Shown in pieces: positions 2,359 through 40,756 of a stretch of 64,000 nucleotides of DNA. The notes beneath the pieces were generated by a model, which worked only from the letters and a program-made list of their open reading frames with translations, did not search any database and was not told the DNA's origin. Source of the DNA: a bacterium (GTDB lineage: Bacteria; UBA8248). The stretch spans positions 352,001 through 416,000 of the forward strand of contig OZ253442.1 in the NCBI GenBank assembly GCA_965261085.1, in the 5' to 3' direction. The stretch's first letter is position 1. Every line of letters starts with the position of its first letter. The position numbers and the translations under genes were made by a program.

Positions 2359-2910
2359 ATGAAGAACCGGTTCAAGAAATTCCTGGATTTCGACGACCCG
2401 AACAAGCTCATGCCGTGGAAGGACAAAAGCCCCGAACCCCAAGGGGAGGAGCCTGAGGATCGCCCCGAAATCGCCATCAAACCGGCCTGGTATTTCGCGA
2501 TGTATTTCATCATGGGCGTGGGGTTCGACACCCTGTTTCCCACCAACGTCTTCCCCGAGAAAGTGCGCTTCATGCTCGGGGCGGGGCTGGTGCTCGCAGG
2601 CGCGATTCTCAATTCAACCTCTTTGGCGCGCTTCAGGAAAGCCCACACGAACCATGCGACAGATGCGCCCGCGCGCGTCCTCATCACGGACGGCCCCTAT
2701 AGCTTCTCGCGAAACCCGATCTATCTCGGCTTCATGTGCCTCTACATGGGTCTCGGGATTTTTCTCAACAATCTTTGGATATTCGTTCTGGGAGCGCCGC
2801 TGGTCGCCACGATTCAGGCCGTGATTATCACGCGCGAGGAGGATTACCTCGCGGGAAAATTCGGTGAGGAATACGGCGACTACTGCCGGAACGTGCGCCG
2901 CTGGTTGTAG
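2359..2910 (+). CDS. Isoprenylcysteine carboxyl methyltransferase / PEMT-family membrane protein
   Basis: LITDGPYSFSRNPIYLG and EEDYLAGKFGEEYGDYCRNVRRW motifs. Confidence 0.9.
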   Translation: MKNRFKKFLDFDDPNKLMPWKDKSPEPQGEEPEDRPEIAIKPAWYFAMYFIMGVGFDTLFPTNVFPEKVRFMLGAGLVLAGAILNSTSLARFRKAHTNHATDAPARVLITDGPYSFSRNPIYLGFMCLYMGLGIFLNNLWIFVLGAPLVATIQAVIITREEDYLAGKFGEEYGDYCRNVRRWL

Positions 2911-3311
2911 GGGTTGTTGGAAAGGACCTGGTTTAATCGGAATTCTTCCCCCCGGCGCGGCTGTGTATTTCACCCTTGAACAGCATTGCCAACTGACGCG
3001 AAAGAAGAGAACCGCATCCACTTTGTGATCAAACCCGACCGTGTAGAAAAGAAGTTCACTCCCCCCTTGAGGGGGAGTCGAAGAGCTAAGGGGGAATGCC
3101 CGCAAGCGATTCGGTGGGGGGAGAGTTCCGACTGATGGAAGAAGTATTCCTGCGACCGAGGACAGAGGATTTCCTGCAATAAAAAGCTCCCCTCACCGAG
3201 TCAGCCTTCACCTGTCGGTTCGGCTTCCTCGACTCCCCCTCAAGGGGGGAGTGAACTTCAAAAGCGTGCATGAAACCCAAAATCGCTTCTCGGAGGTTTC
3301 CCAACAACCCC
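2910..3311. mobile_element. MITE-like non-autonomous element with internal REP-like palindromes
   Basis: Inverted ends GGGGTTGTTGGAAA / TTTCCCAACAACCCC; internal CTCCCCCCTTGAGGGGGAG and CTCCCCCTCAAGGGGGGAG palindromes; no transposase. Confidence 0.65.
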
Positions 3312-3583
3312 TCTAGCGCGGCTCACTCGAAAAGGGCCTTGTATCATTTTGAATTATTTATAACGATTTTATTTATAGGCACTTAGGAGGAAAGGACTAA
3401 AAAATATTAACAGGTTTTATTGGAAAAGAGTTAACTCGTGTTCAGTATTATTTATGGAGTGAAAAACATCGTTTTGACGTGCGCACATAAAAAAGTAGTC
3501 TCACCCCATTTGGCCGCGATCTTACAATGATTCAACAAGCACTTGTATGGGCACTTGAACCTAGAAGATGCGCCCCTCCGTTA

Positions 3584-3946: not shown

Positions 3947-4642
3947 ATGAAACCGAAAGTAAAAGATGTCTTGAATGCAAGCGTAGTTTTTCGTGGTATA
4001 GAATTGCTCAACACTCAAGAAATGATAGATAAATTCAAGAATGATGTGCAGTCTGAAGTGATTTTGAATGCTGGCACATTTCTTGGAGTACAAGCTGACG
4101 CCTCTCTGGCTATAGGACGATCTTTTTCGTTTACAAAAGACCGGATAGAAATTCAATCTGCTAAAAATCAATCAATTTGTAGACTTGAGTATCCCAAAAT
4201 AGAATTCCTTGGCCGTTTAGCAGAAATTGCACACTTATCAATTAAAAATACCTTTCCCCTAACTTATGGAAAAATAATTCCTATCGGGTACAATGTTGAA
4301 TTGCTCTATGATCTTTTGTCTGAATCTGAAAGATCGGCTTACCAATATATTGCTAGGAGAATCTTTTCTCCTTTTAAGGATGAATTTAATTGGGGGTTAA
4401 TTGGTGGTACTGGTAAATTTTCCTTTAATGAACTTTATAAGGAAGACTATCAGCGATGGAATGTGCAAATTGAGCCTCGTTTTAATCAAGAAGATACTTC
4501 GACAATATTTCTCGCCACAAATTTACATTTCAATAATATTGAGCTACCAAAAACCAAAGAGGAAATTTTAAATTCACTAAACAGAGTGTGGGAACAAGCT
4601 CATAAGCTTGTAGAAAGAATTGATGAAAATGTCGATAACTAA
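3947..4642 (+). CDS. Cassette 1 gene A: uncharacterised ~230-aa protein (TIGR04255-like)
   Basis: AT-rich ORF; shares SVV, IG(Y/I)N and N(L/I)H motifs and length with 32095..32787. Confidence 0.7.
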   Translation: MKPKVKDVLNASVVFRGIELLNTQEMIDKFKNDVQSEVILNAGTFLGVQADASLAIGRSFSFTKDRIEIQSAKNQSICRLEYPKIEFLGRLAEIAHLSIKNTFPLTYGKIIPIGYNVELLYDLLSESERSAYQYIARRIFSPFKDEFNWGLIGGTGKFSFNELYKEDYQRWNVQIEPRFNQEDTSTIFLATNLHFNNIELPKTKEEILNSLNRVWEQAHKLVERIDENVDN

Positions 4643-5378
4643 CGAAACGATGCGGCCAATCAATAGTAATGAATCCCTCTGGAATGAAGGTTCGTATCCC
4701 ACTGAAGCCCCAAAAATGAGGCGGCTGGATAATCTTTACGATTTTTCTAATGTGGATAATTGGACGACAAAACAGAATGAGGATTCTCATATCTTAGATA
4801 AAATCCGTTCATTTTCCGAATTGCCTGATGGATGGCATTACGGAGAAGGTCGCGGAGCTACTGAACAAGCTCAAGAGATGGCTAAAATGATTTGCTCGCA
4901 ACTACCAGAGTTTGGGATAGACATTAAATTATTCCCAGGCATTTATGGAGGCATTACTATTTTTGGATGCCGAGACAGTCACTTTTTTGAAATATTTTGC
5001 AGTGAAGATGGTTTGATTGATATTTTGCACGAATTTGAAGGAAACACATTATCTGAACAGGATGACAAATCATTGGGTGAAGCAATTCAATATTTGAGGG
5101 ACCAATTGTGGGATGCGGAATCTTGGATGGAAAGCTTTTTGAAGGAGAAATCATTAGGCTTCTCAACCCTTTATTATTCGACGAAGAACTACAACGATTT
5201 ACAAGCAATGCTTTTACCGGGTCATCAAAAGACGGCGGTATATCAGTTTTCTCTACAGAATGCGCCCGAAGATGCAGCGGTTCTGAATGCCGACACATTT
5301 GTCGTTACTACTCAAATTTTAACCCACCCATCCTATGGAGAATACTTTCCAGCGAGTTACCTTCAACCGCAGAATTAA
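4620..5378 (+). CDS. Cassette 1 gene B: uncharacterised protein (start may be ATG 4623 or 4629)
   Basis: Overlaps gene A stop; ELPDGWHYGEG..A..LFPGIYGGITI core parallels 32784..33488; C-terminal ~90 codons overlap gene C. Confidence 0.65.
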   Translation: MMKMSITNETMRPINSNESLWNEGSYPTEAPKMRRLDNLYDFSNVDNWTTKQNEDSHILDKIRSFSELPDGWHYGEGRGATEQAQEMAKMICSQLPEFGIDIKLFPGIYGGITIFGCRDSHFFEIFCSEDGLIDILHEFEGNTLSEQDDKSLGEAIQYLRDQLWDAESWMESFLKEKSLGFSTLYYSTKNYNDLQAMLLPGHQKTAVYQFSLQNAPEDAAVLNADTFVVTTQILTHPSYGEYFPASYLQPQN

Positions 5379-5557
5379 TAGCTGAGCCGTCGATAACTGG
5401 CGATCCATGTCATTTAAATATAATCAATATAACTAAGGGCCAAAGCAGGAACATAGTTAAAACAATTAAACTTAATGAATTAGATATTTGTGATGGATGC
5501 GAGTATCGACCCTTGACCCAAGAGGATATAAATAATTTTGAGAAATTATCCACTTAA
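5108..5557 (+). CDS. Cassette 1 gene C: putative ART-fold-like toxin
   Basis: GTG start with GAGGG RBS; EIIR..NAF..GISVF..PSITGDPCHLNI parallels 33485..33928. Confidence 0.6.
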   Translation: MGCGILDGKLFEGEIIRLLNPLLFDEELQRFTSNAFTGSSKDGGISVFSTECARRCSGSECRHICRYYSNFNPPILWRILSSELPSTAELIAEPSITGDPCHLNIINITKGQSRNIVKTIKLNELDICDGCEYRPLTQEDINNFEKLST

Positions 5558-5644
5558 GTAAAAGACTCATTGGCAATCCGTATAAGTACTGTAAGTGCCT
5601 ACAAGTAAAAGCATTATCAATATTTCAAAATGATACAAAGCCCG

Positions 5645-6453: not shown

Positions 6454-7737
6454 TCAAAGGCTCGGCGCCTCGTAGCGGATTTCCCCGCCCGTGACGGTGC
6501 AGACGACGAACGCGCCCGCATCAAATACGCTGCCGAGGTTCAAACCGCCTAAACCGCGAGGCGGACATACGACGCAAAAATCAGCCGCGCCACCCGGCTT
6601 CAAGACGCCCAGGTTATCGAAGCCGAGCGCCTCGGCGCCTGAGCGCGTGCACATTTCCAGCAACTCGGCGTCGCTTATCTCCACATCCGTCTCGCGTAGC
6701 GCGCGAGCCTCATCCAGAAGCGAGAGGGTGGGGCTGCTCGCCAGGCTGTCGGTACCCAGGCACAAATCCAGCCCCGCCTCGCGCATGCGCGCCGCATCGG
6801 CGAAGGGATGGCCGAAAAAACGCGCCGAGCGCGGACAAAGACAAACGCGCACCCCGTTCTTCCGGAGGAGCGCCCAGTCTTCCGCGTTCGTCTGGTTCGC
6901 GTGAACGGCCAGAGCGAGGCCATCGAGCGCACCCGCCAGGTCGAGATGGGCGACGGGCCGAAGACCCGAGGGCTTGTAGCCGTCCAGAGAGCCGTTCAAA
7001 TCCCGGTGCACTCTCGCGAGCGCGCCGCCGCCGTCTTGCAAAAATTCGATCTCGTGCGCGCTTTCACCCAGGTGCGTCGCTACGGGCCAGCCTCTCGCTC
7101 TCGCCTCATTCAACACCACGCGGTATAGGGCGAGCGACGCGGTGTAGGGCGCATGGGGACTCAGGCCATGCCGGACGGCGTTCGGAATCGCGCCTTTGTA
7201 TTCCGGGAAAAGGTCGCAGGCTTCGAGCTTTTCCGCCAGAATCTCATCCGCCCGGGCCGGGTCGAGACCCAGCACCTCGTGGAACACCACGCCGCGCATT
7301 CCAGCGCCTGAAATCGCCGTCGCGCTCTCCCCCGAGATGGAGACGTCGCCCACGCAGGTGACGCCCGCCGCCAGACTCGCGGCAACGCCGATCTGCGCCG
7401 ATGCCAGAAAAAGATGCGCGGGCCAGCCTCTCATCTCGCGTACGAGCGAGACTATCCACTCCTCCATCGGGCCGGGTTTGCGCTTTAGACCTGAGAGTTC
7501 CAGGTGCGTGTGCGCGTTGACGAGGCCGGGAATCAGTATAGCGCGCCCGAAATCGCGCTCCTCTGCCACCGGCACACTGGGGCGAACGAAGGCCTCATCC
7601 CCCACCGCCAGAATCCGGCCCGAGGACGTGAGCAGCGCGCCGCGCCTGATGGGCGGCCCTTCCACCGGGCACACGAGGTCCGCCAGCCAAAGCTCCATTT
7701 TCTGCGTTCGGGGCGTTCGGGGCGATTCCGTCGTCAC
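6454..7737 (-). CDS. Amidohydrolase, probable aminodeoxyfutalosine deaminase
   Basis: PGLVNAHTHLE, SPHAPY, THLGES, LGTDS; directly downstream of mqnC. Confidence 0.75.
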   Translation of the reverse strand: MTTESPRTPRTQKMELWLADLVCPVEGPPIRRGALLTSSGRILAVGDEAFVRPSVPVAEERDFGRAILIPGLVNAHTHLELSGLKRKPGPMEEWIVSLVREMRGWPAHLFLASAQIGVAASLAAGVTCVGDVSISGESATAISGAGMRGVVFHEVLGLDPARADEILAEKLEACDLFPEYKGAIPNAVRHGLSPHAPYTASLALYRVVLNEARARGWPVATHLGESAHEIEFLQDGGGALARVHRDLNGSLDGYKPSGLRPVAHLDLAGALDGLALAVHANQTNAEDWALLRKNGVRVCLCPRSARFFGHPFADAARMREAGLDLCLGTDSLASSPTLSLLDEARALRETDVEISDAELLEMCTRSGAEALGFDNLGVLKPGGAADFCVVCPPRGLGGLNLGSVFDAGAFVVCTVTGGEIRYEAPSL

Positions 7738-7751
7738 GAGAGAGGGAGCTG

Positions 7752-8831
7752 CTAGATCAATTCGTAGAAGAAATTGCGCCGCCTCGGCGTGAAGCCGGCG
7801 TTTCGCGCCATGCGGTGGAGGTCGTCCTCGTTCAGGGCGTAGGTCGTTCCGGCGGCGCTCACGACGTTTTCCTCCAACATGGTGGAGCCCATGTCGTTAC
7901 ATCCGTAGTGGAGCGATATCTCTCCGATCTTCATGCCCTGCGTCACCCAGGAGGATTGAAAGTTCAAGATGTTATCGAGATACAGCCTGCTGATCGCCAG
8001 CATCCGCAAATACTCGCTGCTGCCCACCGTCTGGGCCTTGAGCGCCGCCGCGCCGTCGTTCTGGAACGTCCAGCAGATGTACGCCGTGAATCCTCCCGTC
8101 TCGTCCTGAAGCTCGCGCAGGCGGTGGAGGTGCTCGACCCGCTCCTCATTCGTTTCCACGTGGCCGAACATCATCGTGGCGCTGGAGCGGATGCCCAGAT
8201 TATGGGCGACGCGCATGACCTCGAGCCAGCCCTCCGTATTCACTTTCAGCCTCGATATCGTATCGCGCACGCGGTCGACAAGAATCTCGCCGCCGCCTCC
8301 GGGCACCGAATCGAGACCCGCCGCGCGCAGACGGGTGAGCACCACCTCATAGGGCATGTCTTCGAGCCTGGCGATGTGGTGAATCTCAGGCGGACTCAAG
8401 GCGTGGAGATGAAGGTCCGGAAACTCTCCCTTCATCCAGGAGAAGAGCTCCTCGTACCACTCGATTCGCAAGTCGGGATGGTGCCCCCCCTGGAGCAGAA
8501 TCTGCTTGCCGCCGACGGCGTAGAGCTCGTCCAGTTTTAATCTTATCTCTTCGCGCGTACGGATATAGGCTTCGGGGTGATCCCCCGGCGGGCGGTAGAA
8601 CGCGCAGAACGTGCAGTAGACGTCGCACACGTTCGTGTAGTTGATGTTCCTGTCCACGCAATAGGTGGCGTAGCCCTCGGGATGTAAGCGCGCGCGCACG
8701 TCGTCCGCCGCAGCGCCCAGGGCGACCAAGTCGTCCCCCTCGAGCAGGGCGAGTCCCTCCTCAAAAGAGAGGCGCTCGCCTCCCGCCGCCTTCTCAATCG
8801 CATCGTAAAACGCCGTCGTCGCCGTGGTCAT
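7752..8831 (-). CDS. mqnC: Cyclic dehypoxanthinyl futalosine synthase (radical SAM)
   Basis: DRNINYTNVCDVYCTFCAF, PGGGGEIL, QSSWVTQG, MLEENVVSAAG. Confidence 0.92.
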   Translation of the reverse strand: MTTATTAFYDAIEKAAGGERLSFEEGLALLEGDDLVALGAAADDVRARLHPEGYATYCVDRNINYTNVCDVYCTFCAFYRPPGDHPEAYIRTREEIRLKLDELYAVGGKQILLQGGHHPDLRIEWYEELFSWMKGEFPDLHLHALSPPEIHHIARLEDMPYEVVLTRLRAAGLDSVPGGGGEILVDRVRDTISRLKVNTEGWLEVMRVAHNLGIRSSATMMFGHVETNEERVEHLHRLRELQDETGGFTAYICWTFQNDGAAALKAQTVGSSEYLRMLAISRLYLDNILNFQSSWVTQGMKIGEISLHYGCNDMGSTMLEENVVSAAGTTYALNEDDLHRMARNAGFTPRRRNFFYELI

Positions 8832-30984: not shown

Positions 30985-31379
30985 TCGAATCCACTCCCCC
31001 CTTGAGGGTCGGTCTTTCCTCCTCGGGAAGACCGACGCAGAAGCCGAGCGTTTTGTGTGCGAAGGCTGATGCGGTGGGGGGTGAATTCCGACTGAAGAAG
31101 GAGGAATTCCTACGACCGAAGAGGGAGAGTTTGCGAAAGCCCGGGAACGAGGAACATATCGTTTCGCAATTCCTCGCTCCTCGGGGCTGTTGAAAAAGTC
31201 CCCTTTTTAGAGAGTAGAGGGGACACCCCTTTCGACTGGTAAAAGCAACCCCCCTGTCCCCCCTTGTCAAGGGGGCTTTTCTTCCACCCCCTCGTCGGGG
31301 GGCATCGCCTTTACCCCCCTGACAAGGGGGGACAGGGGGGTTGCTCCCTTGACAAAGGCTTTTTCAACAACCCCTCCTC
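30985..31379. mobile_element. REP-like repeat plus MITE-like element (31183-31374) with apparent 5-bp target duplication TCCTC
   Basis: TCCTC-GGGGCTGTTGAAAAA..TTTTTCAACAACCCC-TCCTC; nested CCCCCTTGTCAAGGGGG palindromes; 31070-31128 resembles 3110-3170. Confidence 0.65.
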
Positions 31380-31410
31380 GCACGGAACTGACCTCCCCGG
31401 TCGGGGTTGA

Positions 31411-31770
31411 TTACTCGCTCAGGACCTTGTCGGCCCATTCCACGAGCGCCACCAGGTCCTGCGGCGTCACGAAGCGCGCGTTCTTGCCTTCCAGGTCATC
31501 CTCATAGACCGCACGGGCCCGCGCACACGCCGTTCATATATGGACGGGAATCTCAAACTTTACCGTCTGGGCCATCGTCTCTCTTAATGGCGGCCAGCCG
31601 ACGGGCGTCACCGCGTTCATCACCTCGTCTTTCATCAGGTTCACCGCCTCGCCGAGAAGAAACAGCCGCACCTCGTGGCCCGCCTCCGCAAAGGCGTTCG
31701 CGTGCAAAAAGGCGAACGACCCTTTCGTGGATTCATCCGAACCCCAGGGACTCTTGATGAGCACTTTCAT
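31411..31770 (-). CDS. DsrE/DsrF-like selenoprotein (UxxC), in-frame UGA at 31534-31536
   Basis: MKVLIKSPWGSDESTK..FLLGEAV..IPVHI-U-TACARARAVYEDDL..LVEWADKVLSE*; AGGAGG RBS; DsrE-type C-terminus lies beyond the UGA. Confidence 0.85.
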
Positions 31771-32094
31771 AAGGGTGATTCCTCCTGAAAACAAATGATG
31801 ACGATGTGAAAGGTCGGCGCAACGCGGCCAGTGTGAACATCGGGAGACACGATGCGTCATGGGCGAAGATAGCACCGCCGCGCGGGTCGCGCCAACGGGG
31901 TGGGGAGGGGGGGCCGAGGTTAAGTATCAAAACGCGCGGGGCGCATTAACTCGCATTTGCCGTCATCACAATATTTTTCGGATATTTCAAAATCCGCCGC
32001 GGGAGTGCCGACGACACTCTTCATTGCGTTTACGTAACAAAAATTACATAATTCATTACCGTCTAAATTTTCCATATCAGGAAGGCCGAACTGT

Positions 32095-32787
32095 ATGAAT
32101 CAGACGAAATCTCCCGGTTCTGATGGGGGAAATGACATCAAGCTTATCGAATTGTCCGTAGTACTTGTAGCGAATTCCAACAATCCATCCATCATCAACC
32201 CCGACTTCCTGCGCTACAACAAAATAGTGGACGACAGCTATGAGGTTCAAGACTCGCCCATTTCCACACCGGCATTTTCCCAAGTGATGTTCAAGAACGG
32301 GATTACGGTAACATCGGCTCCCGATCGTGTGATATTCGCGCATGCTGGCACACTGAACAGGGACGATATCGTGTCTCCAGGAGTCACGAAGCGCTACTTA
32401 GAGTGCGTCCCGCACGTACCCTACCGCGCCATCGGCATCAATCCGAAAGGATTTCAGAGCGCGCCTAGAAAAGAGCCGATCCCTGTTGTGAATATGCTGC
32501 GCGACAAAGGCTCATGGGCATCGTTCGAGGACGTTACTCCAGAAGTGCAACTAAAAGCTATATATCGCTACAGCGAAAGGATCATCTCCTTGGATATTGC
32601 TCGCGCGGATATAACGGAAAATGGTAAAAAAACATCCGGAACGCTGTATCAAGCGAATATCCATCGCGAATTAACCGAGACAAATACAGAGTTCCGCATA
32701 AATCGCTTATCATCGGTTCTGGATTCGTGGAAGAACGATCTGGAAGATTTTTACAATTTGACGAACAAATTCTGCGGGGAGGGATGA
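32095..32787 (+). CDS. Cassette 2 gene A: uncharacterised ~230-aa protein (TIGR04255-like)
   Basis: LSVVLVA..NPSIINPDFL..AIGIN..NIH; parallels 3947..4642. Confidence 0.75.
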   Translation: MNQTKSPGSDGGNDIKLIELSVVLVANSNNPSIINPDFLRYNKIVDDSYEVQDSPISTPAFSQVMFKNGITVTSAPDRVIFAHAGTLNRDDIVSPGVTKRYLECVPHVPYRAIGINPKGFQSAPRKEPIPVVNMLRDKGSWASFEDVTPEVQLKAIYRYSERIISLDIARADITENGKKTSGTLYQANIHRELTETNTEFRINRLSSVLDSWKNDLEDFYNLTNKFCGEG

Positions 32788-33488
32788 TGTCCATTGCAAC
32801 AGGTCCGGAGCCAATACCGGCTTCAGAGACGGCAGTCGACATTGAGAAACTAGTAGCCGATTTTGAGCAACAGGATGCTTATCCGAAATTTGGCGCGATG
32901 TCGATTCATAGCGCACATGTGTTCGTCAGCCACACGCTTAGTTCTTCGAGTTGGCATTCACCAGTTCGATATGCGCGCTTCTCGGATGCCTTACAACCAG
33001 AAGTACAACCCGGAGAGATTTTATCCCATCTGATACCATCCTCTTCTCAGGGTCAACCGAAACCGAGTCTCTCCCCACTTGATTGGGAGTTGCTCGGCGA
33101 GTTTATCGCACATGGCGCAAAAGACTTCCCCGTCCAGTTTGCCGACGCTTTGCGCGATCTGGATGACGTCGTCGAAGAAGCCGAAGAAGAAGGCTTCCCT
33201 GTACCAAAAGAGATCGCTCTCGACAATGCGAAACGGTTGCTGAGGGAAATGTACACCATATCACCACGCCGTTTTGAGGTTTATCCCATGCCGGATGGCG
33301 AAGTCGCCATCGACGCGCCCGATGGCCGAGGAAGTTCCGTGCTGCTCTTGTGTGATTCGGATGGCGGCGCGTTGTGCCTTGTCAATATGAAAGGCAAGCA
33401 TCGTCGCGCCCGATATTCCACCACTGAAGCGCTTCCCGACGGTTTCATACGTGAAGCTATGGCCGAACTTGAACAGCAGAACAATTGA
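32784..33488 (+). CDS. Cassette 2 gene B: uncharacterised protein
   Basis: ATGA overlap with gene A and GGAGGG RBS; EEEGFPVP..ALDNA..VYPMPDGEVAID core. Confidence 0.7.
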   Translation: MMSIATGPEPIPASETAVDIEKLVADFEQQDAYPKFGAMSIHSAHVFVSHTLSSSSWHSPVRYARFSDALQPEVQPGEILSHLIPSSSQGQPKPSLSPLDWELLGEFIAHGAKDFPVQFADALRDLDDVVEEAEEEGFPVPKEIALDNAKRLLREMYTISPRRFEVYPMPDGEVAIDAPDGRGSSVLLLCDSDGGALCLVNMKGKHRRARYSTTEALPDGFIREAMAELEQQNN

Positions 33489-33928
33489 ACCCGGAGAAAG
33501 CACCCGAGAACATCGGGCAGGACGAGGAACTCGGACGCAGCGTATTCTCAAGACGCAGAGCGAGACGTGCACGACGTTCAAGAGTCCCAGCGGATGTGTT
33601 TTTGGAAAAAGAAGGCGAACCCAAGATTTCCGTTGACAGGCTGAGCGTAGCGCCGCCGGATGTAGCCACCGAGATAGCTGAGGCCGTGGCTGCTAAGCGT
33701 AACGCTAACGCTACCTTCTACGGATGGGCTTTTCTCACCGCTTCCCGAACACGGGAAAATGGGCGGGAAGCACTCGCTTCACCCCTAGAAAGTAACCCGT
33801 ATCACGCCGATATCGTATTGCCTCAATCTGCAGTTGAAGACCGAGAAGAGCAACAACGGCACGCGCTGGAACTGGCGGATGCTTCACGCTGGCGAGAAAG
33901 TCCGAGCTCCTCCCAAGAATCGTCTTGA
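33485..33928 (+). CDS. Cassette 2 gene C: putative ART-fold-like toxin
   Basis: TTGA overlap with gene B; ELGR..VFL..KISVDR..PLESNPYHADI. Confidence 0.65.
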   Translation: MNPEKAPENIGQDEELGRSVFSRRRARRARRSRVPADVFLEKEGEPKISVDRLSVAPPDVATEIAEAVAAKRNANATFYGWAFLTASRTRENGREALASPLESNPYHADIVLPQSAVEDREEQQRHALELADASRWRESPSSSQESS

Positions 33929-34010
33929 ACCGATAACCAAAGAACGACCCCCGATTCCCCGTTTACGCTCTCCCGCATTATCCCGCACTTGCCTTCTTCG
34001 GCCTCACCTT

Positions 34011-35183
34011 TCACTCCCTGAACACGTTCACCTTTATGCTCCGCAGCGCCTCGCGCGGGCCGGCCCTGGTTTCGCGCATGATTCTCACCTCTCCCCGGTA
34101 TGCCCCGGGCGGCCAGCGCACCTTCGTCCGCTTGCCCACGGCCCGCCAGATACGGATACGGTGTCTTTTGAGCGATTCCTCTTTTTGGGCGAGCACCCCG
34201 CCGTCGGGACCCAGGAGGCGCAAGGATATAAAATCGCCCCGTCTCAGCCCTGCGACCTCGGCCCAGAAGACCAGCGCGTGTGATGAGGCCGGAAGCGACT
34301 TGGCGCCAAGCGCGCCCGTGCGGACCTCCTCCGTCGTGGGCAGATGATCCGCAAAACCTGCTTGGTAGGGAATGGCCGATAAGTAGCGCAGCTTCTCCAG
34401 AACCTCGCGCCGCCAGAGCGGCGTTTTTCCCAAGTCGCATTCCGCGCCACCCTCGACACCCACGAAGGGGTCGACGACCTTTCCTTTTTTTTCGACTGAT
34501 ATGTGCAGATGCGGAAATTCCGTGCGCCCCGAGAGGCCGACTGCGCCCAAGCGCTCACCCGCGCGCACCCGGCCACCCCTTCTGACCGAAACGCTCCCCC
34601 GCTTCATGTGGCAATACTGGGTATGCCAGCCCTCGCCGTGGTCGACGCGCACGCCGTTGCCGCAGTCTTTTCCCTTCAAGGCGGCGCGGCCGATAAGGCG
34701 GACATCCAAGTCGCTCATTCCGTCGCGTACGCCGACCACCCTGCCATCGGCGGCGGCGCGCACCTCGATTCGCTCGTGCAGTCTCCCGGCGTGAGCCAAG
34801 GCGATGTCGGTGCCCTTGTGCCCATCGTAGCTCATTCGCCCACAGGCGAAGTCGGCGTATCCCTTCCCGGGGTCTGAGTCGACGTAGTTGAAGACCCAGC
34901 AATCGACCCCCGGCTCGCAATCAATCGGCAGCGAAAGCGGGAGTGGCGAGCGCCCGAACGAACGCCCGGTGAGATCATGGGCGGCGATGGCCCCGGGCGC
35001 AGGCGCGCGCCTCGCGACCCGGCCACGGGAGAGGCGGCTCCGCGCGAGTTTCGGCTCCGCCTCCCGCCGCGACACGAACTCGGGCCCCTTGACCATGAGT
35101 AGATCGAATTCGAAAATCGCCCACACGGCAAGGATGGCGAAGAGGAAGGTCATGACCATGATGGCGAGCAGAATGCGGAGCAA
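34011..35183 (-). CDS. M23 family metallopeptidase
   Basis: N-terminal TM, HKGTD, TQYCH, FPHLH. Confidence 0.88.
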   Translation of the reverse strand: MLRILLAIMVMTFLFAILAVWAIFEFDLLMVKGPEFVSRREAEPKLARSRLSRGRVARRAPAPGAIAAHDLTGRSFGRSPLPLSLPIDCEPGVDCWVFNYVDSDPGKGYADFACGRMSYDGHKGTDIALAHAGRLHERIEVRAAADGRVVGVRDGMSDLDVRLIGRAALKGKDCGNGVRVDHGEGWHTQYCHMKRGSVSVRRGGRVRAGERLGAVGLSGRTEFPHLHISVEKKGKVVDPFVGVEGGAECDLGKTPLWRREVLEKLRYLSAIPYQAGFADHLPTTEEVRTGALGAKSLPASSHALVFWAEVAGLRRGDFISLRLLGPDGGVLAQKEESLKRHRIRIWRAVGKRTKVRWPPGAYRGEVRIMRETRAGPREALRSIKVNVFRE

Positions 35184-35774
35184 GGCTCAGGCCTCCGTCG
35201 TCCGGGGACTCTTGATGTGCGCTTTCATGGGGGCGGTCTCTCATTGAAACCCAAGCCTGAAAGCGGGTGAGTCGGGTTTGAAGATAGCACCGCCGCCCGA
35301 ATCGCGGCAATCGGATTAGATGGATAATCAGGGGAGCGGGCGGTTCGCGAACCACGCTTCAGGAAGACGCGAACTCCCCCTCAGCGGGGAAGTTCGACCC
35401 TTCTCGGTCGGAATTGATTGCGCACTTGCCCGCATTCGCCGTCACGGGTTTTTCAGGACGATGGGGTATGCTCGGAAGGCCGCCCGTCGGCCTTCGGTTT
35501 TTCAGGTGGCGAAGGCGGCGCGGAGCGCTGGAGCCGGGTGGACGCTCCAGCGAAGTGAGGAACATGCAAAATGCAAAAAATAATATGTGAAAATATCGAT
35601 AAATTCACGGGGTTTTTCGATAAATAAATGACCATTTATTTTCTTCGGAAAAGACGCCGCCGCATTGCAGCGCAGGGGAATTCTGCCATGGACAGCTACT
35701 CCCTCGATAACGGGAAATGCACGGTTTTGCGGGGAGTTGCGCCCCCGCTCAAAGCGTCCACCCAGCCGCGCCTT

Positions 35775-36002
35775 CTAGGGTCCCGGATAGGCCTCGGGCG
35801 GTCTGGCGTCTTCTTCGGTTCTCTTTGATTTTATTCGCTTTCTGGCGACGAGAGGGTCATCCTTGAGTCGCGCGATCGGGTCCTCCTCATCGTCCCCGCG
35901 CCCGTAGGCGTTGCCCTTCTCGAACGCGAGCCGTCCGAAGAGACGGTTCAGGTTGTTGCGCGCGGTTTGCTCGTCTCCGGCGTCTTTTCTTCGTTTCTTC
36001 AT
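35775..36002 (-). CDS. Small hypothetical protein
   Basis: 75 aa, ATG preceded by GGGGAGAG RBS. Confidence 0.45.
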   Translation of the reverse strand: MKKRRKDAGDEQTARNNLNRLFGRLAFEKGNAYGRGDDEEDPIARLKDDPLVARKRIKSKRTEEDARPPEAYPGP

Positions 36003-36040
36003 GTTTTCTCTCCCCTTCTTTCACAAGCAAAGTCAATAGC

Positions 36041-37147
36041 TTACAGGATTCTCCACCTCTCGCCTACCGCCATCACCCTGACGCGGGCGGCATCCGCGCC
36101 CGTCTTCTCCATGTGCGTCCTGAGGACGCGGGGCGGATGGTCGATGGGTTCATCGGTCAGATCGAACGTACCCCAGTGCATGGGGATCATCCGGCGCGCG
36201 CCCAGATCGTGAAACGCCTGAAGCCCCTCGGCGGGGTTCATGTGAGGATAGCGCATCATCCACCTGGGCTCATACGCGCCGACCGAGAGCATGGCCACGT
36301 CGATGGAACCGAATTTGCGGCCAAACTCCTTAAACCCTTGAAAATAGCCGCTGTCCCCGCCGTGAAAATACCTGCGCGTACCGGTCTCGATGAGCCAGGC
36401 GCACCAAAGCGTGGAGTCCCTCGCCGTGCCGAACCGGTTCGACCAGTGCTGCGCGGGCAGGCAGGTAAGGCGCACACCGCCTTGCTCCGCGCTTCGCCAC
36501 CAGTCGAGTTCCACGGCGCGCCTGCCGAGTGATTCCACGAAAGCGCCCAGCCCCACGGGCACGAACCACGTGACGTCTTCGGGCAGGTTCTCTATCGTCC
36601 ATGAATCGAGATGATCGTAGTGGTTGTGGGAGATCGTCGCCACGGCACCCCCCGGTATTGAGGCCGCAGGCACGCCCGGGGGCTGATGGCGTCGATACAA
36701 CAAGGCCCTCGCGCCGAAGTGCGGATCCGTCAGGATAACGTTCGGTCCATCCTGAATGATGAAACCGCAATGCCCGACACACGTGATGGAAGGCTCCTCT
36801 CCCGCTTTCGAGAGATACGCGCCATCGTTGGGAACGACGGGAACATGGGGCGTTTCGCCGTTTTTGATCTCAGCGAATTCGTTTCGGTACAAAAACTTCC
36901 ATTTCAGCAGACTGACCCGCGAACCCGGATTCGGCCACCAGGGGTTGAACCAGGCTCCCGGCTCGCCATGCGGCCAATAAAGGGATTCCGCCTCGCGCGA
37001 GATGAGGCCCTGCGATTCAGCAGGAGGAGGCTGTGGCGCCTTGATGCCCAGACCCATTCGCGCGCATCCTCCCGCCAAGCCCAAGACGCCGAGGCCCGCC
37101 AAACCAGCGCCTTTGAGAAATTTCCGTCTGCCGATTTTCGGTTTCAT
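36041..37147 (-). CDS. Tat-exported MBL-fold metallohydrolase (NAPE-PLD/RomA-like)
   Basis: GRRKFLK leader, SHNHYDHLD, PAQHWS, GAYEPRW, PMHWGTF. Confidence 0.88.
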   Translation of the reverse strand: MKPKIGRRKFLKGAGLAGLGVLGLAGGCARMGLGIKAPQPPPAESQGLISREAESLYWPHGEPGAWFNPWWPNPGSRVSLLKWKFLYRNEFAEIKNGETPHVPVVPNDGAYLSKAGEEPSITCVGHCGFIIQDGPNVILTDPHFGARALLYRRHQPPGVPAASIPGGAVATISHNHYDHLDSWTIENLPEDVTWFVPVGLGAFVESLGRRAVELDWWRSAEQGGVRLTCLPAQHWSNRFGTARDSTLWCAWLIETGTRRYFHGGDSGYFQGFKEFGRKFGSIDVAMLSVGAYEPRWMMRYPHMNPAEGLQAFHDLGARRMIPMHWGTFDLTDEPIDHPPRVLRTHMEKTGADAARVRVMAVGERWRIL

Positions 37148-37200
37148 CGCAACCCACGCGGTGGCTGATTCAGAATATCCCTTCCCTGCTGAGCGGGAAA

Positions 37201-38073
37201 TCAACCCAGGGACGCATACCACTCGGCAATCGCCCGACCCATCTCACCGGGTGAGTCCTCATGACAATAATGAAGCCCGGCAACCGTCGCCTCCGTCACG
37301 TTCGGCCAACCGCGAACCATTGTCCTATGTTCTCCCACGAGAACGGCTCCCGGTTCGCTGTTGATGAAAAGTTTCGGAACCGGGTGTTTCTCCAGCCACG
37401 CGTTGTTGCGCTCGATGATTTCGAGAACGTCCGCAGGCTCCCCCTCGATGGGAATCTCGCGCGGCCATGTGAGCGTGGGCCTTCTGTCCTCGCCGGGATT
37501 GCGGTAGGGCCTCCGGTATTCATCATGAATTTCATCCGAAACGTCGCGGATGACCATGGCGGGCAAAATCTTCTCCACAAAGAAGTTCTGCTCCAAAACG
37601 AGTTCCTCGCCCTCCTCGCTACGAAACCTTTTGAACAGGGCCTGAACGTCCGGCGGCCAGTGGCTCCACTCAAAATCGCCGACGACGCTCTGGCAGATCA
37701 CGACGCCCTTGAGTTTATCCTGTCTCTCCGACGCCCACGTGAAGCCGAGTTGCGCGCCCCAGTCGTGCGTGACGATGGTGACGTTCTCCTCCACTCCCAG
37801 GGCATCCATCAGCGCGTTCGTGAACGGCTGGTGATCGGCCAACCGGTACATGGAGCCGGCGAGTTTTGCGGAATCGCCCTGCCCGATATTGTCTACCGCG
37901 ATGCAGCGGCCCAGACCCTCGACGTGCGGAATCACGTTGCGCCACATATAAGACGAAGTGATGTTGCCGTGGAAAAAGACGATAGGGTCCCCCTCGCCCG
38001 CCTCCACGTAGGCCATCTTTTCGCCCAGAACTTCCGCGAATTTTTTCTGATACTTCATGCGAGGCTCTATCAT
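37201..38073 (-). CDS. Haloalkane dehalogenase
   Basis: HGN.TSSYMWRN, HDWG, RRPTLTWPREIP, GLHYCHEDSP. Confidence 0.88.
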   Translation of the reverse strand: MIEPRMKYQKKFAEVLGEKMAYVEAGEGDPIVFFHGNITSSYMWRNVIPHVEGLGRCIAVDNIGQGDSAKLAGSMYRLADHQPFTNALMDALGVEENVTIVTHDWGAQLGFTWASERQDKLKGVVICQSVVGDFEWSHWPPDVQALFKRFRSEEGEELVLEQNFFVEKILPAMVIRDVSDEIHDEYRRPYRNPGEDRRPTLTWPREIPIEGEPADVLEIIERNNAWLEKHPVPKLFINSEPGAVLVGEHRTMVRGWPNVTEATVAGLHYCHEDSPGEMGRAIAEWYASLG

Positions 38074-38101: not shown

Positions 38102-39154
38102 TCATTCACCAACCCGTAAGACCAGCTTGCCGCGCACGTGGCCCTCTTCCAAGAGCGTATGAGATGCCGCGATGTTCTCCGCGTTCATTTCTCCCATATC
38201 GGTGATCTGCGGCACCTTGATCTCGCCCATCTCCACCCAGTCGCGAATCTCCTCGAGCGCCTTCTTGTAGACGCCATAGTAAGCAGGACCGCCCCCGCGC
38301 ACGGGCGCACGCAGGAAGGTGCCGTGAAACGAAGCCGATTTGGTGAACAGCGGACCTTCCTGGGATGAGAAAAATTCATCGATGGGCGCTCCCGGTTCGG
38401 GTGCGATGGAGGAGATTCGCCCCCAGTAGTCCACGACTTCGCAGCAGAGTTTCTTCATCTCACGGCCCACGAAATCAAACGTGGCGGGAAAAAGACGATC
38501 TCCGTTCATCTCAACCGCCCGGCGGGACAACTCATCGAGCGAGAGTCCCGAATACCTCAACACGGCGACGGGGGCCGGAGCGATCAAATCCTCTATGTAT
38601 TTTGCGCTCCCATCGCTTCCCGCCGTCACGATGATGGGAGATGCACCGATGCGCGCAAGCATCTGAAGTCCCATGGTTCCCACGCCGCCCGAACCGCCCG
38701 CCACGAAAACCGCCTCTCCCGGCTCCACCCGCGCCTTCATCACCACCGCCTCATGGGCGGTCAGCGAGACGAGCGGCAAGGCGGCCGCTTGCCCGAAAGT
38801 GGCATTGGCCGGCTTTTTCACGACGAACGCCTGATGGATGCACACGAACTCCGCATAGCCGTCCCCGCCGCTGTCACCGAACCTCGGGAGATAGGCCATC
38901 ACCTCATCGCCGGGAGAGAATTCCGTAACGCTCGCGCCCACCGATTCGACCACGCCTGCGGTATCCCTGCCCAGGATGATGGGAACCGCGCCCTGGTTGC
39001 CGCCCCGTCTCGCCTTGAAATCGGTCGGGTTCAGGGAGACAGCCCTCGCCCGTATCTTCACCTCTTCAGACCCGGGCTCTCTCTCGGGCCAATCGGCATC
39101 CTCGAAATTCTCCACGCCACCGAACTCTTTCAATACGACCGCGTACATTTTCAC
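38102..39154 (-). CDS. NADPH:quinone oxidoreductase (MDR family)
   Basis: SLNPTD, GGSGGVG, GHVRGKLVL. Confidence 0.85.
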   Translation of the reverse strand: MKMYAVVLKEFGGVENFEDADWPEREPGSEEVKIRARAVSLNPTDFKARRGGNQGAVPIILGRDTAGVVESVGASVTEFSPGDEVMAYLPRFGDSGGDGYAEFVCIHQAFVVKKPANATFGQAAALPLVSLTAHEAVVMKARVEPGEAVFVAGGSGGVGTMGLQMLARIGASPIIVTAGSDGSAKYIEDLIAPAPVAVLRYSGLSLDELSRRAVEMNGDRLFPATFDFVGREMKKLCCEVVDYWGRISSIAPEPGAPIDEFFSSQEGPLFTKSASFHGTFLRAPVRGGGPAYYGVYKKALEEIRDWVEMGEIKVPQITDMGEMNAENIAASHTLLEEGHVRGKLVLRVGE

Positions 39155-39160
39155 CCTCCG

Positions 39161-39958
39161 CTATACCATCCAGGCCCCGCCGGCCAAGACCAATCCCTGT
39201 CCCGTGACGTTTTTGCTCTCATCGCTCGCGAGATACACCGCCATGTGACCCACGTCGTCCGTCGTCTGCTCGCGTCCCAGGGGAACCGTCGCCTCGACGA
39301 ATTCATCGAACACCCGCCTCGCGGGCCTGTCCGTCTCCGCTCCTATGATAACGCCGTGGCCCTTCTCCCAGATATTCGTCCACAACAGACCCGGGTTAAT
39401 TGCGTTGACGTTCACGTTATAGGGGGCCATCTCCTTGGCGAGGCTCATGGTGAAGTTCAAGCAAGCCGCCTTGGACGCGGAATAATGCGGCACGTCCGCG
39501 TTCGCGCGTCTTGCGGCGAGCGAGGCCAGGTTGATGATTTTTCCGTATCTGCGCTCCCGCATATGGGCGGCAATAGCGCGGCACATCAGAAAAACACCCG
39601 TCGAGTTGACTGTAAAAACGGCGTTCCACTCCTCGAGCGTTATGTTGTCTACCGGGTTTCCCACGAGCGCCGCCCCTCTCCCGTGGCAATTCACCAGGAT
39701 GTCGACCCGCCCCATCCGATCGACCGCCGTCTGGGCGATGTTTTCCGCGTCTGTTTCGCTCGTCACGTCCGCCGCCAGGGCGAAATGCGCTCCCTCGCCG
39801 GCGTCGTCGAGTCCTCTTTGGGTAACCTCGTCATTGACGTCGACCACGCAAATTTGCGCACCCTCGCGGGAAAAAGCGCGGATGATGCCCCGGCCGATTC
39901 CGCCGCCACCTCCCGTGACGACCGCCGTTTTTCCTTCCAGACGCATTCTTATTTCCAT
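39161..39958 (-). CDS. SDR oxidoreductase (tandem copy 2)
   Basis: TGGGGGIG, YSASK. Confidence 0.9.
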   Translation of the reverse strand: MEIRMRLEGKTAVVTGGGGGIGRGIIRAFSREGAQICVVDVNDEVTQRGLDDAGEGAHFALAADVTSETDAENIAQTAVDRMGRVDILVNCHGRGAALVGNPVDNITLEEWNAVFTVNSTGVFLMCRAIAAHMRERRYGKIINLASLAARRANADVPHYSASKAACLNFTMSLAKEMAPYNVNVNAINPGLLWTNIWEKGHGVIIGAETDRPARRVFDEFVEATVPLGREQTTDDVGHMAVYLASDESKNVTGQGLVLAGGAWMV

Positions 39959-39964
39959 CCTCCG

Positions 39965-40756
39965 CTAGACCATCCAGGCCCCGCCCGCTAGGAGCAGGCC
40001 CTGCCCGGTGACGTTTCGGCTCTCATCGCTCGCGAGATAGACCGCCATGTGGCCCACGTCGTCCGGCGTCTGCTCTCGGCCCAGGGGAACCGCCGCCTCG
40101 ACGAACTCGTCGAACACCCTTCTCGCGGGCCTGTCCGTCTCCGCGCCGATGATGACGCCGTGGCCCTTCTCCCAAAGATTCGTCCACAACATGCCCGGGT
40201 TGATCGCGTTGACGTTCACGCTATAGGGAGCCATCTCCTTGGCGAGGCTCATGGTGAAGTTCATGCACGCCGCCTTGGACGCGCAGTAATGCGGCACGTT
40301 CTCGTTCGCGCGCCTTGCGGCGAGCGAGGCCAGGTTGATGATTTTCCCGTACTTCCGATCCCGCATATGGGCGGCGACCGCCCGGCACATCAAAAACACG
40401 CCCGTCGAATTCACATTAAAAACGGCGTTCCACTCCTCGAGCGTTATGTTGTCGATGGGGTTTCCCATGAGCGCCGACGGCCTTCCGTGGCAATTCACCA
40501 GAATATCGACCTGCCCCATCCGCTCGATAGCCGTCTGTACGACGTTTTCCGCGTCCGTCTCGCTCGTCACGTCCGCCGCCAGGGCGAAATGCGCCCCCTC
40601 GCCGGCGTCACCGAGTCCTTGCTTGGTTACCTCGTCATTGACGTCGACCACGCAAATTTGCGCGCCCTCGCGCGCGAAAGCGCGGATGATGCCTCTGCCG
40701 ATTCCGCCGCCGCCGCCCGTGACAACCGCTTTTTTCCCTTCTAATCGCATTCGCAC
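39965..40756 (-). CDS. SDR oxidoreductase (tandem copy 1)
   Basis: TGGGGGIG, YCASK; near-duplicate of the neighbouring gene. Confidence 0.9.
   Translation of the reverse strand: MRMRLEGKKAVVTGGGGGIGRGIIRAFAREGAQICVVDVNDEVTKQGLGDAGEGAHFALAADVTSETDAENVVQTAIERMGQVDILVNCHGRPSALMGNPIDNITLEEWNAVFNVNSTGVFLMCRAVAAHMRDRKYGKIINLASLAARRANENVPHYCASKAACMNFTMSLAKEMAPYSVNVNAINPGMLWTNLWEKGHGVIIGAETDRPARRVFDEFVEAAVPLGREQTPDDVGHMAVYLASDESRNVTGQGLLLAGGAWMV

Follow-up and report, generated by a model that had tools for sequence, protein, structure and literature searches.

Three short overlapping genes on contig OZ253442.1 of a bacterium of the lineage UBA8248 (NCBI GenBank assembly GCA_965261085.1) raise the question of what kind of system they encode. 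The genes, here called A, B and C, occupy positions 32095-33928 of the 64,000-nucleotide (nt) stretch that we analysed (positions 352,001 to 416,000 of the forward strand, hereafter the window), and none of their products matched a family in Pfam, NCBIfam, PADLOC or PHROGs. The same window holds a similarly arranged cassette at 3947-5557, which we call copy 1, and the original prediction, made from the sequence alone, took the locus studied here (copy 2) for a separately acquired copy of the same widespread cassette, with C as a weakly translated toxin. Our analysis leads us to favour, as somewhat better than an even bet, a model in which A–B–C moves horizontally and serves in conflict, as a toxin–antitoxin or abortive-infection module whose three families lie outside the curated libraries. 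Arguing for this model, besides purifying selection, conservation as a unit and signs of mobility, are the weak, translationally coupled start of C, the selective decay of C, the complementary charges of B and C, the defence context of the cassette and the swapping of its third gene.

A coupled operon that recurs across phyla

The three genes follow one another on the same strand (Table 1), and their junctions are as originally described and can be read directly in the sequence: the ATG of B overlaps the stop codon of A as ATGA, and the TTG of C overlaps the stop codon of B as TTGA. B has a second in-frame ATG at 32787, and no alternative ATG, GTG or TTG occurs between the stop codon of B and the LGR motif conserved in C. 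Dozens of independent genomes show the same gene order and overlaps, again with a weak start of C, and the layout therefore goes beyond chance; the region is best explained as one operon of three co-translated genes. We found no special RNA structure at the B–C junction (z = -0.78), and transfer RNA and Rfam scans of the 64-kb window gave no match. Upstream of A lies a promoter-like sequence, TTGCGT-17-CATAAT, whose hexamers match the sigma-70 consensus at 3/6 and 5/6 positions (8/12 in total). Among the three closest cassettes that could be aligned, hexamers and spacing are identical in L001 and kept as TTGCGT/CATACT in L002, and they are lost in L003; a consensus scan of 31000-34600, requiring at least 4/6 per hexamer and at least 9/12 overall, returned no promoter-like site. 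The proposed promoter thus stands as a sequence that is present and conserved in two of its relatives, but it lies below the scan threshold and is absent from the third.

The weak start of C is a recurrent property of the cassette. Our survey of start codons covered 49 cassettes (48 loci and the window), from which L012 and L028 were dropped for having no start near the stop codon of B and L020, L034 and L063 for being irregular, leaving 44 for C; L002 has no B start, leaving 43 for B. C begins with GTG in 18 cassettes, with TTG in 16 and with ATG in 10, so that 34/44 starts are non-ATG, a count that may be inflated since several starts were possible in 12/44 cassettes and the most upstream was used. 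B begins with ATG in 36/43. The start of C overlaps the stop codon of B by 4 nt in 19/44 cassettes and by 1 nt in 4/44, and the start of B overlaps the stop codon of A by 4 nt in 26/43. A B–C fusion considered for L020 was ruled out by a stop codon between the two genes. The idea that low translation of C is consistent with a toxin therefore gains comparative support from the contrast between C and B starts, and from the decay of C described below, while toxicity itself stays putative.

To place the cassette among genomes we scanned one genome per species with the alignment of A, which gave 94 confirmed relatives, and took the best 80 loci. By tblastn, 50/80 of these A-selected loci carry genes of the type of B in copy 2 (B2-type) and 49/80 carry C2-type genes; in 48/80, B and C lie directly downstream of A in the same order, and in L062 a C-type gene stands behind another kind of middle gene. 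The cassettes come from Proteobacteria, Acidobacteriota, Nitrospirota, Binatia, Latescibacterota, Rhodothermales, Chloroflexota and Cyanobacteria. In a FastTree phylogeny of A the loci with B2- and C2-type genes form one clade, L062 excepted, inside which Gammaproteobacteria, Binatia, Nitrospirales, Rhodothermales, Latescibacterota, Acidobacteriota and Dehalococcoidia are intermixed, a pattern that fits horizontal transfer. Pairwise distances of A, of the C-terminal domain of B and of C are correlated across 43 cassettes (r 0.69-0.72; reached by 0/999 Mantel permutations), which shows that the three have shared their history as a unit and says nothing about binding. With 48/80 loci, many phyla and correlated distances, copy 2 does belong to a widespread conserved module. 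Judged by the ratio of nonsynonymous to synonymous substitution rates (dN/dS) relative to sister genome L001 (A 0.14, B 0.31, C 0.23), all three are shown to be real genes under purifying selection.

Composition sets copy 2 apart from its surroundings. Its guanine-plus-cytosine (GC) content is 0.518, against 0.598 for the window; along the cassette unit (promoter region and the three genes) GC stays at 0.45-0.56 and in the flanks it is 0.60-0.67, while GC at third codon positions (GC3) is 0.51-0.56 in A, B and C and 0.67-0.80 in neighbouring genes. By blastn, 31941-33915 matches positions 4850-6806 of L001 at 80% identity, and the nearest flanking block common to the window and L001 is 35420-37628, at 82% identity. 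No inverted repeats were found flanking copy 2. In L003, L008, L035 and L036, Pfam searches identified transposase or insertion sequence (IS) genes or integrase genes beside the cassette. The foreign GC and GC3, the scrambled taxa and the flanking IS and integrase genes are best explained by a cassette that would move horizontally.

The proteins themselves define three families. Exhaustive HMMER searches with C returned 560 cluster representatives (50% identity) at E<=1e-3, 316 of them at E<=1e-10, with lengths of 75-184 amino acids (aa) among the 150 matches listed. Ser49 and His107 of C are invariant in alignment A3 (68 sequences), in which Arg18, Phe39, Asp51, Arg52, Gly80, Trp81, Pro100, Asn104, Ile110, Leu130, Ala131 and Trp136 are each present in at least 90% of sequences, and the stretch after the LGR motif is a basic patch with a median of 5 Lys/Arg per 20 residues. 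B is acidic as a whole, with an isoelectric point (pI) of 4.7, and falls into two parts. Its C-terminal ~120 aa are well conserved with a net charge of -8 (alignment A4, 28 sequences), while its N-terminal part, 73-183 aa long, is hypervariable and cannot be aligned across that alignment; Ser, Thr and Pro make up 26% of the N-terminal part against 15% of the C-terminal domain, and dN/dS relative to L001 is 0.59 in the N-terminal half against 0.11 in the C-terminal half. For A, 357 word-sharing candidates yielded 173 homologues at E<=1e-3, with no Pfam domain among the 120 matches listed, of which only two are named, both 'hypothetical protein'. A carries the motifs NPSIxNPDFL, GINPKG and ANIHR with invariant or near-invariant Pro, Asp, Asn, Arg, Tyr and His (alignment A1, 32 sequences), and no internal duplication or repeat was detected in it. 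TIGR04255, considered as a lead for A, was set aside: NCBIfam gave A no match, and the name appeared in no paper.

Searches beyond single sequences gave the same picture. No member of alignments A1, A3 or A4 matched Pfam, sequence and profile searches of the PDB returned nothing, and PADLOC-DB 2.0 returned 0 families for A, B or C at E<=1, so that its models of described anti-phage systems were not matched. Neither A nor B has a helix-turn-helix, ribbon-helix-helix, AbrB or other Pfam or NCBIfam domain; a novel DNA-binding fold is possible. Among the copy-1 proteins and the alternative partner genes discussed below, the only library matches were a Uma2 neighbour and an unnamed PHROG for the third gene of L060. 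A search of full-text literature, supplements lying outside its scope, found no paper on the A, B or C family.

Table 1. Positions of the cassette and of other features discussed (window positions unless a locus is named)
Feature	Position	Strand	Description
Low-GC cassette unit, copy 2	31941-33928	+	promoter region + A, B, C; from GC, GC3 and blastn block vs L001
Promoter-like TTGCGT-17-CATAAT	32024-32052	+	TTGCGT 32024-32029, CATAAT 32047-32052; putative function
Shine-Dalgarno-like AGGAAGG	32079-32085	+	9 nt 5' of the ATG of A; read from sequence
Gene A	32095-32787	+	230 aa; ATG at 32095, TGA at 32785-32787
Gene B	32784-33488	+	234 aa; ATG at 32784, TGA at 33486-33488
Gene C	33485-33928	+	147 aa; TTG at 33485
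A1 (copy 1)	3947-4642	+	231 aa
B1 (copy 1)	4620-5378	+	252 aa
C1 (copy 1)	5108-5557	+	149 aa; GTG start at 5108
Inverted repeats around copy 1	3334-3385 / 5592-5643		52 nt, 87% complementary, 2206 nt apart
Nested palindromic repeat, upstream of copy 1	2909-3312
Nested palindromic repeat, upstream of copy 2	30985-31374
166-aa open reading frame	81-581	minus	no Pfam match
SocA/Panacea-domain gene	562-1092	minus	antitoxin-like; Pfam E 2e-22; overlaps start of the 166-aa frame
Tandem direct duplication	39147-39948 / 39951-40752		802 nt, 87.5% identity
Short-chain dehydrogenase gene	39968-40756	minus	contains the second duplication copy
Remnant of C	L030 6196-6576		N-terminal remnant; A and B intact
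Site without C	L027 2711 onward		no C; A and B intact
Unannotated C'-like open reading frame	L089 3492-3842		116 aa; hhalign E 2.2e-13 vs cyanobacterial-type C

Loss of C, exchange of partners and genomic context

Where the cassette decays, it tends to be C that goes. Of the 52 loci that have a gene of the B2 or C2 type, five show C damaged or gone: it is frameshifted in L024 and L034, absent from L027, reduced to a remnant in L030 and truncated in L063, the frameshifts being possible assembly errors in metagenome-assembled genomes. A and B are intact in L024, L027, L030 and L034; A is broken only in L063, where the whole cassette has decayed. The conserved domain of B is never lost where C persists, and no locus has C without a middle gene. 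The asymmetry, four losses of C against none in the opposite direction, is suggestive but small.

A keeps varied company. The 30 A-selected loci in which tblastn found no B2-type gene carry other genes downstream: a cyanobacterial pair, B'/C', at 11 loci (C' is missing in L048), a third downstream type in L046, L058 and L080, a 216-aa protein as third gene in L044, L055 and L064, and a third gene that looks HEPN-like by eye in L060 and L065, neither of which has a Pfam match. In the tree of A, loci of the 216-aa type and of the HEPN-like type are interleaved with one another. The cyanobacterial pair is linked by profile to B and C of copy 2. Aligned by hhalign, C' proves homologous to the C2 family at E 1.6e-7 and 94% probability (reversed control 0.27, 20 shuffles 0.001-0.67), and at E 1.8e-8 once a Hymenobacter sequence is added to it; B' with bridging sequences matches the C-terminal domain of B2 at E 5e-5 and 67.5% probability (20 shuffles at least 0.089). 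That Hymenobacter sequence comes from plasmid pHA of Hymenobacter sp. APR13 (L089), where a B-like gene of 194 aa is followed by a C'-like gene with an ATGA overlap. There is no A gene there: a DUF4209 (HEPN) gene lies upstream in place of A, and HipA is adjacent. DUF4209 is described as a HEPN family found in restriction-related operons in PMC3710099.

More distant relatives of A (25-30% identity) occur in yet another setting. At 7/11 cyanobacterial plasmid loci inspected they lie just upstream of giant genes (loci H2, H3, H4, H7, H8, H13 and H19); the cyanobacterial-plasmid records with an A relative and a giant gene are L083-L086, L088, L091 and L093. These genes span 19-35 kb and encode repeat-rich proteins of 6,000-11,000 aa, the largest 11,150 aa, with annotations that include CARDB, Ig, Calx-beta, S8/S53 and 'polymorphic membrane protein'. 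B and C are absent at the giant-gene loci, and a search with hidden Markov models (HMMs) found no B- or C-like domain within the giant Anabaena protein. Among the remaining plasmid loci, H1 holds an A–B–C-like trio and H5, H10 and H17 are ambiguous. One A relative lies near a gene for a polymorphic-toxin HINT domain. Since A relatives pair with other genes and B–C can occur without A, these data suggest that B and C would form the core pair, with A an exchangeable accessory of wider uses.

The neighbourhoods of the cassette often, and by no means always, point to defence. We sampled 18 loci and searched up to six nearest neighbours of each with PADLOC models at E<=1e-10; 10/18 loci have at least one such neighbour, as a raw, uncorrected count. 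In L002 the cassette sits between hsdM and hsdS, at a locus with type I R, M and S genes and with HepT by Pfam. Type IIG enzymes lie near the cassette in L008, L061 and L072 and type I R in L019 and L031, the latter also with the TIR candidate PDC-S35; the other neighbours are SoFic in L011, a GajB-like helicase in L015, HmaA in L017 and PD-Lambda-2_B in L001. Neighbours are solely metabolic in L004, L005, L010 and L022, and at none of the 18 scanned loci did secretion genes stand beside the cassette. A Picosynechococcus plasmid carries hsdR and hsdS on either side of an A–B–C-like trio whose C begins with GTG, and next to the trio are HepT/MNT and VapC. Next to copy 2 the window and L001 differ: where the window has an M23 peptidase gene at 34014-35183, L001 has an M78/PD-Lambda-2_B-like gene and a 171-aa open reading frame (ORF) at 6849-8472, and the DNA shared with L001 resumes at 35420. 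The different next-door genes indicate that the site of the cassette is variable.

Two features elsewhere in the window deserve mention. An antitoxin-like gene with a SocA/Panacea domain overlaps the start of a 166-aa ORF near the left end, and the two are likely, from domain content and arrangement, to form a further toxin–antitoxin pair with an unannotated toxin. Farther along lies a tandem direct duplication, one copy of which falls inside a short-chain dehydrogenase gene.

Relation to the first cassette

Whether the two cassettes in the window are of one kind is less easily answered. Several simple statements about them proved accurate: C of copy 1 does start with GTG, copy 2 is the less AT-rich (GC 0.518 against 0.371), and blastn of the two coding regions found no nucleotide similarity. 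Nor did BLASTP link the A, B or C pairs (all E > 1) or connect copy-1 proteins with the other B- and C-types; tblastn of copy-1 proteins against the 80 A-selected loci gave no match, HMM and jackhmmer searches did not link the copies, and no A1 or C1 match was found in plasmid records. The family of A1 has 6 members, and the C1 ORF found no homologue in a set of 5.8 billion proteins.

Profile–profile comparison, the check proposed with the original claim that this is the same cassette, is more informative. The A1 family matches a broad 81-sequence profile of A by hhalign at E 7.8e-6 and 84% probability over 153 columns, well below its controls (reversed 0.31; 20 column shuffles 0.19-0.81); against a profile seeded with A2 the value is 1.9e-4, and against the narrow A2 profile it is 0.2-0.23. 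For C, the direct comparison of C1 with the C2 family is non-significant (E 0.1-0.22), although the alignment places Phe, Ser, Trp, Pro, Pro-x-His and Ile of C1 on conserved columns; the N-terminal 32 columns of C1 match the profile of C' plus the Hymenobacter sequence at E 7.6e-5 (30 shuffles at least 0.043, reversed 0.0015). For B, B1 gives E 0.32 against the B2 family and 0.01 against the bridged B' profile, a weak match (30 shuffles at least 0.11, reversed 0.58). The claim of sameness is thus credible for A, by the broad profile only, partial for C and weak for B.

The alternative is that copies 1 and 2 are not the same kind of cassette, sharing only layout and sizes, with the motif matches in B and C due to chance. 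The silence of BLASTP, tblastn, hmmsearch and jackhmmer, the weak profile scores (narrow A profile 0.2-0.23, C superfamily against C1 0.22, B1 0.01-0.3) and a C1 ORF that has no homologue and overlaps the B1 ORF by 270 nt would all be expected under this explanation. It sits less well with the broad A profile, with a C1 link made through the very profile that matches the C2 family at E 1.8e-8, with conserved-column residues that align in C1 despite the poor score, or with the similar sizes and the position of the GTG of C1 at the end of the B-like domain of B1, and we regard it as rather unlikely. On profile evidence A1 and A2 are probably remote homologues within the same architecture, and the two different foreign compositions fit two separate acquisitions.

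Copy 1 has features of its own. It lies in an AT-rich island (GC 0.38) bounded by a pair of inverted repeats that look like the ends of a small, putatively non-autonomous mobile element carrying the cassette. The B1 ORF continues for ~89 codons beyond the usual end of B-type domains and overlaps C1 in another frame (5108-5378); because the GTG of C1 has the position expected of a GTGA-type junction, a stop codon may have been lost from B1. Upstream of both cassettes lies a nested palindromic repeat, with an outer inverted repeat GGGGYTGTTG..AAA and an inner one CCCCCCTTG..AAGGGGG, including a 55-nt stretch (3108-3162 and 31068-31122) that is 82% identical; one possibility is an intergenic repeat found throughout the genome, another a hot spot for insertions.

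A candidate conflict module and its nearest known systems

In the model that we favour, C would be the toxic effector, a small enzyme of the cytoplasm in which Ser and His are invariant and Arg, Asp and Asn conserved, and whose basic patch would direct it to a nucleic-acid target; these conserved residues and this patch are the reason for proposing a Ser/His enzyme acting on nucleic acid. C would be made in small amounts from a non-ATG start reached by re-initiation at the stop codon of B, and B, made in excess from its ATG, would bind C through its conserved acidic C-terminal domain and keep it inactive. Phage infection, loss of the element or some other trigger could then be sensed by the fast-evolving N-terminal half of B, by A, or by both, releasing C, with A serving as an accessory sensor or regulator outside the core. 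A bolder version of the model is possible, though we would place it on the unlikely side: the cassette would be a new abortive-infection system, spread over phyla and often travelling with restriction-modification, C a new class of small Ser/His-dependent nucleic-acid toxin, B a decoy-like acidic inhibitor with a phage-sensing N-terminal half, and A a promiscuous sensor or adaptor that has joined up time and again with unrelated effectors (C-type, 216-aa, HEPN-like and giant surface proteins).

Several observations weigh against a conflict module. Library searches found no known toxin, antitoxin or DNA-binding domain in A, B or C, and C, with an overall pI of 5.5, is not basic. Eight of the 18 sampled loci have no defence neighbour, and the neighbours of copy 2 in the window (a YjgF-like gene, a small unannotated ORF, the M23 peptidase and a metallo-beta-lactamase-fold protein) are housekeeping-like. 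We found no match for A or C among 50,697 phage records and none for C2 among plasmid records. The giant-gene loci, in which B and C are lacking, indicate that A is not specific to this kind of module. Independent occurrence of the genes, which the original prediction named as the observation that would speak against it, is seen in part, in the A relatives without B or C and the one B–C pair without A. To these must be added the possible inflation of the non-ATG count and the possible assembly errors among the frameshifts of C.

Two other functions would account for some of these observations. The cassette could be a mobile accessory operon without a toxin. C, and possibly A too, would then have an ordinary enzymatic or regulatory role, perhaps modifying or repairing nucleic acids alongside restriction, and the weak start would do no more than set stoichiometry. 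The housekeeping-like setting in the window and the failure to match any known toxin fold or motif agree with this, the conserved His and Asn of A and C are compatible with ordinary enzymes, and overlapping stop-start junctions are common in operons that encode no toxin. Such an operon would leave the selective loss of C (4 loci against 0), the replacement of the third gene by unrelated proteins, the patchy distribution across phyla and the presence of B–C pairs beside HipA, HEPN, VapC and HepT modules to be explained, and we consider it quite unlikely. The cassette could instead belong to the world of secreted or polymorphic toxins, with A an adaptor or chaperone for exported effectors, C an effector against competitors and B its immunity protein. 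The A relatives directly upstream of giant repeat-protein genes and near the HINT-domain gene lend themselves to this idea, and hypervariability like that of the N-terminal half of B is also typical of immunity and effector pairs. It is nevertheless, in our judgement, very unlikely: A, B and C have no signal peptide obvious by eye and no secretion-associated domain by eye or in Pfam, the order of B before a weakly translated C that overlaps its stop codon is a toxin–antitoxin pattern, the giant Anabaena protein shows no B- or C-like domain by HMM search, and the cassettes occur within restriction-modification operons and not beside secretion genes in the loci scanned.

The model of a conflict module has consequences that reach beyond this genome. 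A toxic C would bring a new enzyme family into the toxin–antitoxin and defence repertoire, together with a new example of a restriction-nested module, and if the abortive-infection reading is true, two divergent versions in one genome would amount to layered immunity with pairs that do not cross-react. Two divergent copies in one genome also constitute a natural test of cross-neutralisation, and A, which occurs with such varied partners, is a candidate sensor or adaptor domain that can be reused. Should the cassette prove non-toxic, the analysis has all the same delineated three sizeable protein families without assigned function, together with the limits of their genes.

How does the cassette compare with systems already described? 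The omega-epsilon-zeta operon is a three-component type II toxin–antitoxin system. A, B and C match no ParE, zeta, antitoxin or regulator family, and unlike in three-component type II systems the first gene here encodes a 230-aa protein without a detectable DNA-binding domain and the middle protein is conserved at its C-terminus with a hypervariable N-terminal half. By the usual marks of type II systems, adjacent co-oriented small genes with the putative antitoxin ahead of the putative toxin are found here, whereas an autoregulating DNA-binding domain is found in neither A nor B. For two further marks, growth arrest by the toxin and its neutralisation by a bound antitoxin, the pointers are indirect: the loss of C from four loci with A and B intact for the former, charge complementarity and correlated divergence for the latter. 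The likeness to three-component systems such as paaR-paaA-parE, as PMC7167474 describes them, lies in three small co-oriented genes with the toxin (putative here) last, a toxin less translated than its partner, coupling, and a mobile, patchy distribution; the same source notes that in type II systems translation is less efficient for the toxin than for the antitoxin, and it points to translational coupling in parD.

Nesting within restriction loci and exchange of partners recall other systems. PrrC carries an ATPase domain and an Arg-Glu-His triad, and C, at 147 aa, does not match PrrC and has its own partners in A and B; the window copy, moreover, is not beside a restriction system, so that it shows neither the operon embedding nor the protein family of PrrC. 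Two cassettes of the family, in L002 and on the Picosynechococcus plasmid, do lie inside type I operons, and several others adjoin restriction genes, much as PrrC/EcoprrI, the classical example of such nesting, is described in PMC12707154 as an abortive-infection nuclease inside a type I restriction locus. Nor does any HEPN model match C, whose conserved Arg, Ser-x-Asp-Arg and Asn-Pro-x-His differ from the HEPN motif Rx4-6H. The likeness to the HEPN RNase toxins covered in PMC3710099 rests with the partners, namely the third genes of L060 and L065, HEPN-like by eye, and the DUF4209 gene that replaces A in Hymenobacter. Pfam's SocA_Panacea matches neither A nor B, A is not adjacent to the effector and A relatives are also found beside giant repeat-protein genes, unlike Panacea; yet the Panacea (PanA) antitoxin domain, which according to bioRxiv 10.1101/2021.05.07.442387 pairs with many unrelated toxins, finds a parallel in a conserved partner A, and to a lesser degree a B-type domain, combined with interchangeable third genes. 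While by sequence its proteins fall outside every family that defines these systems, the cassette in its layout resembles the toxin–antitoxin, PrrC and Panacea kinds.

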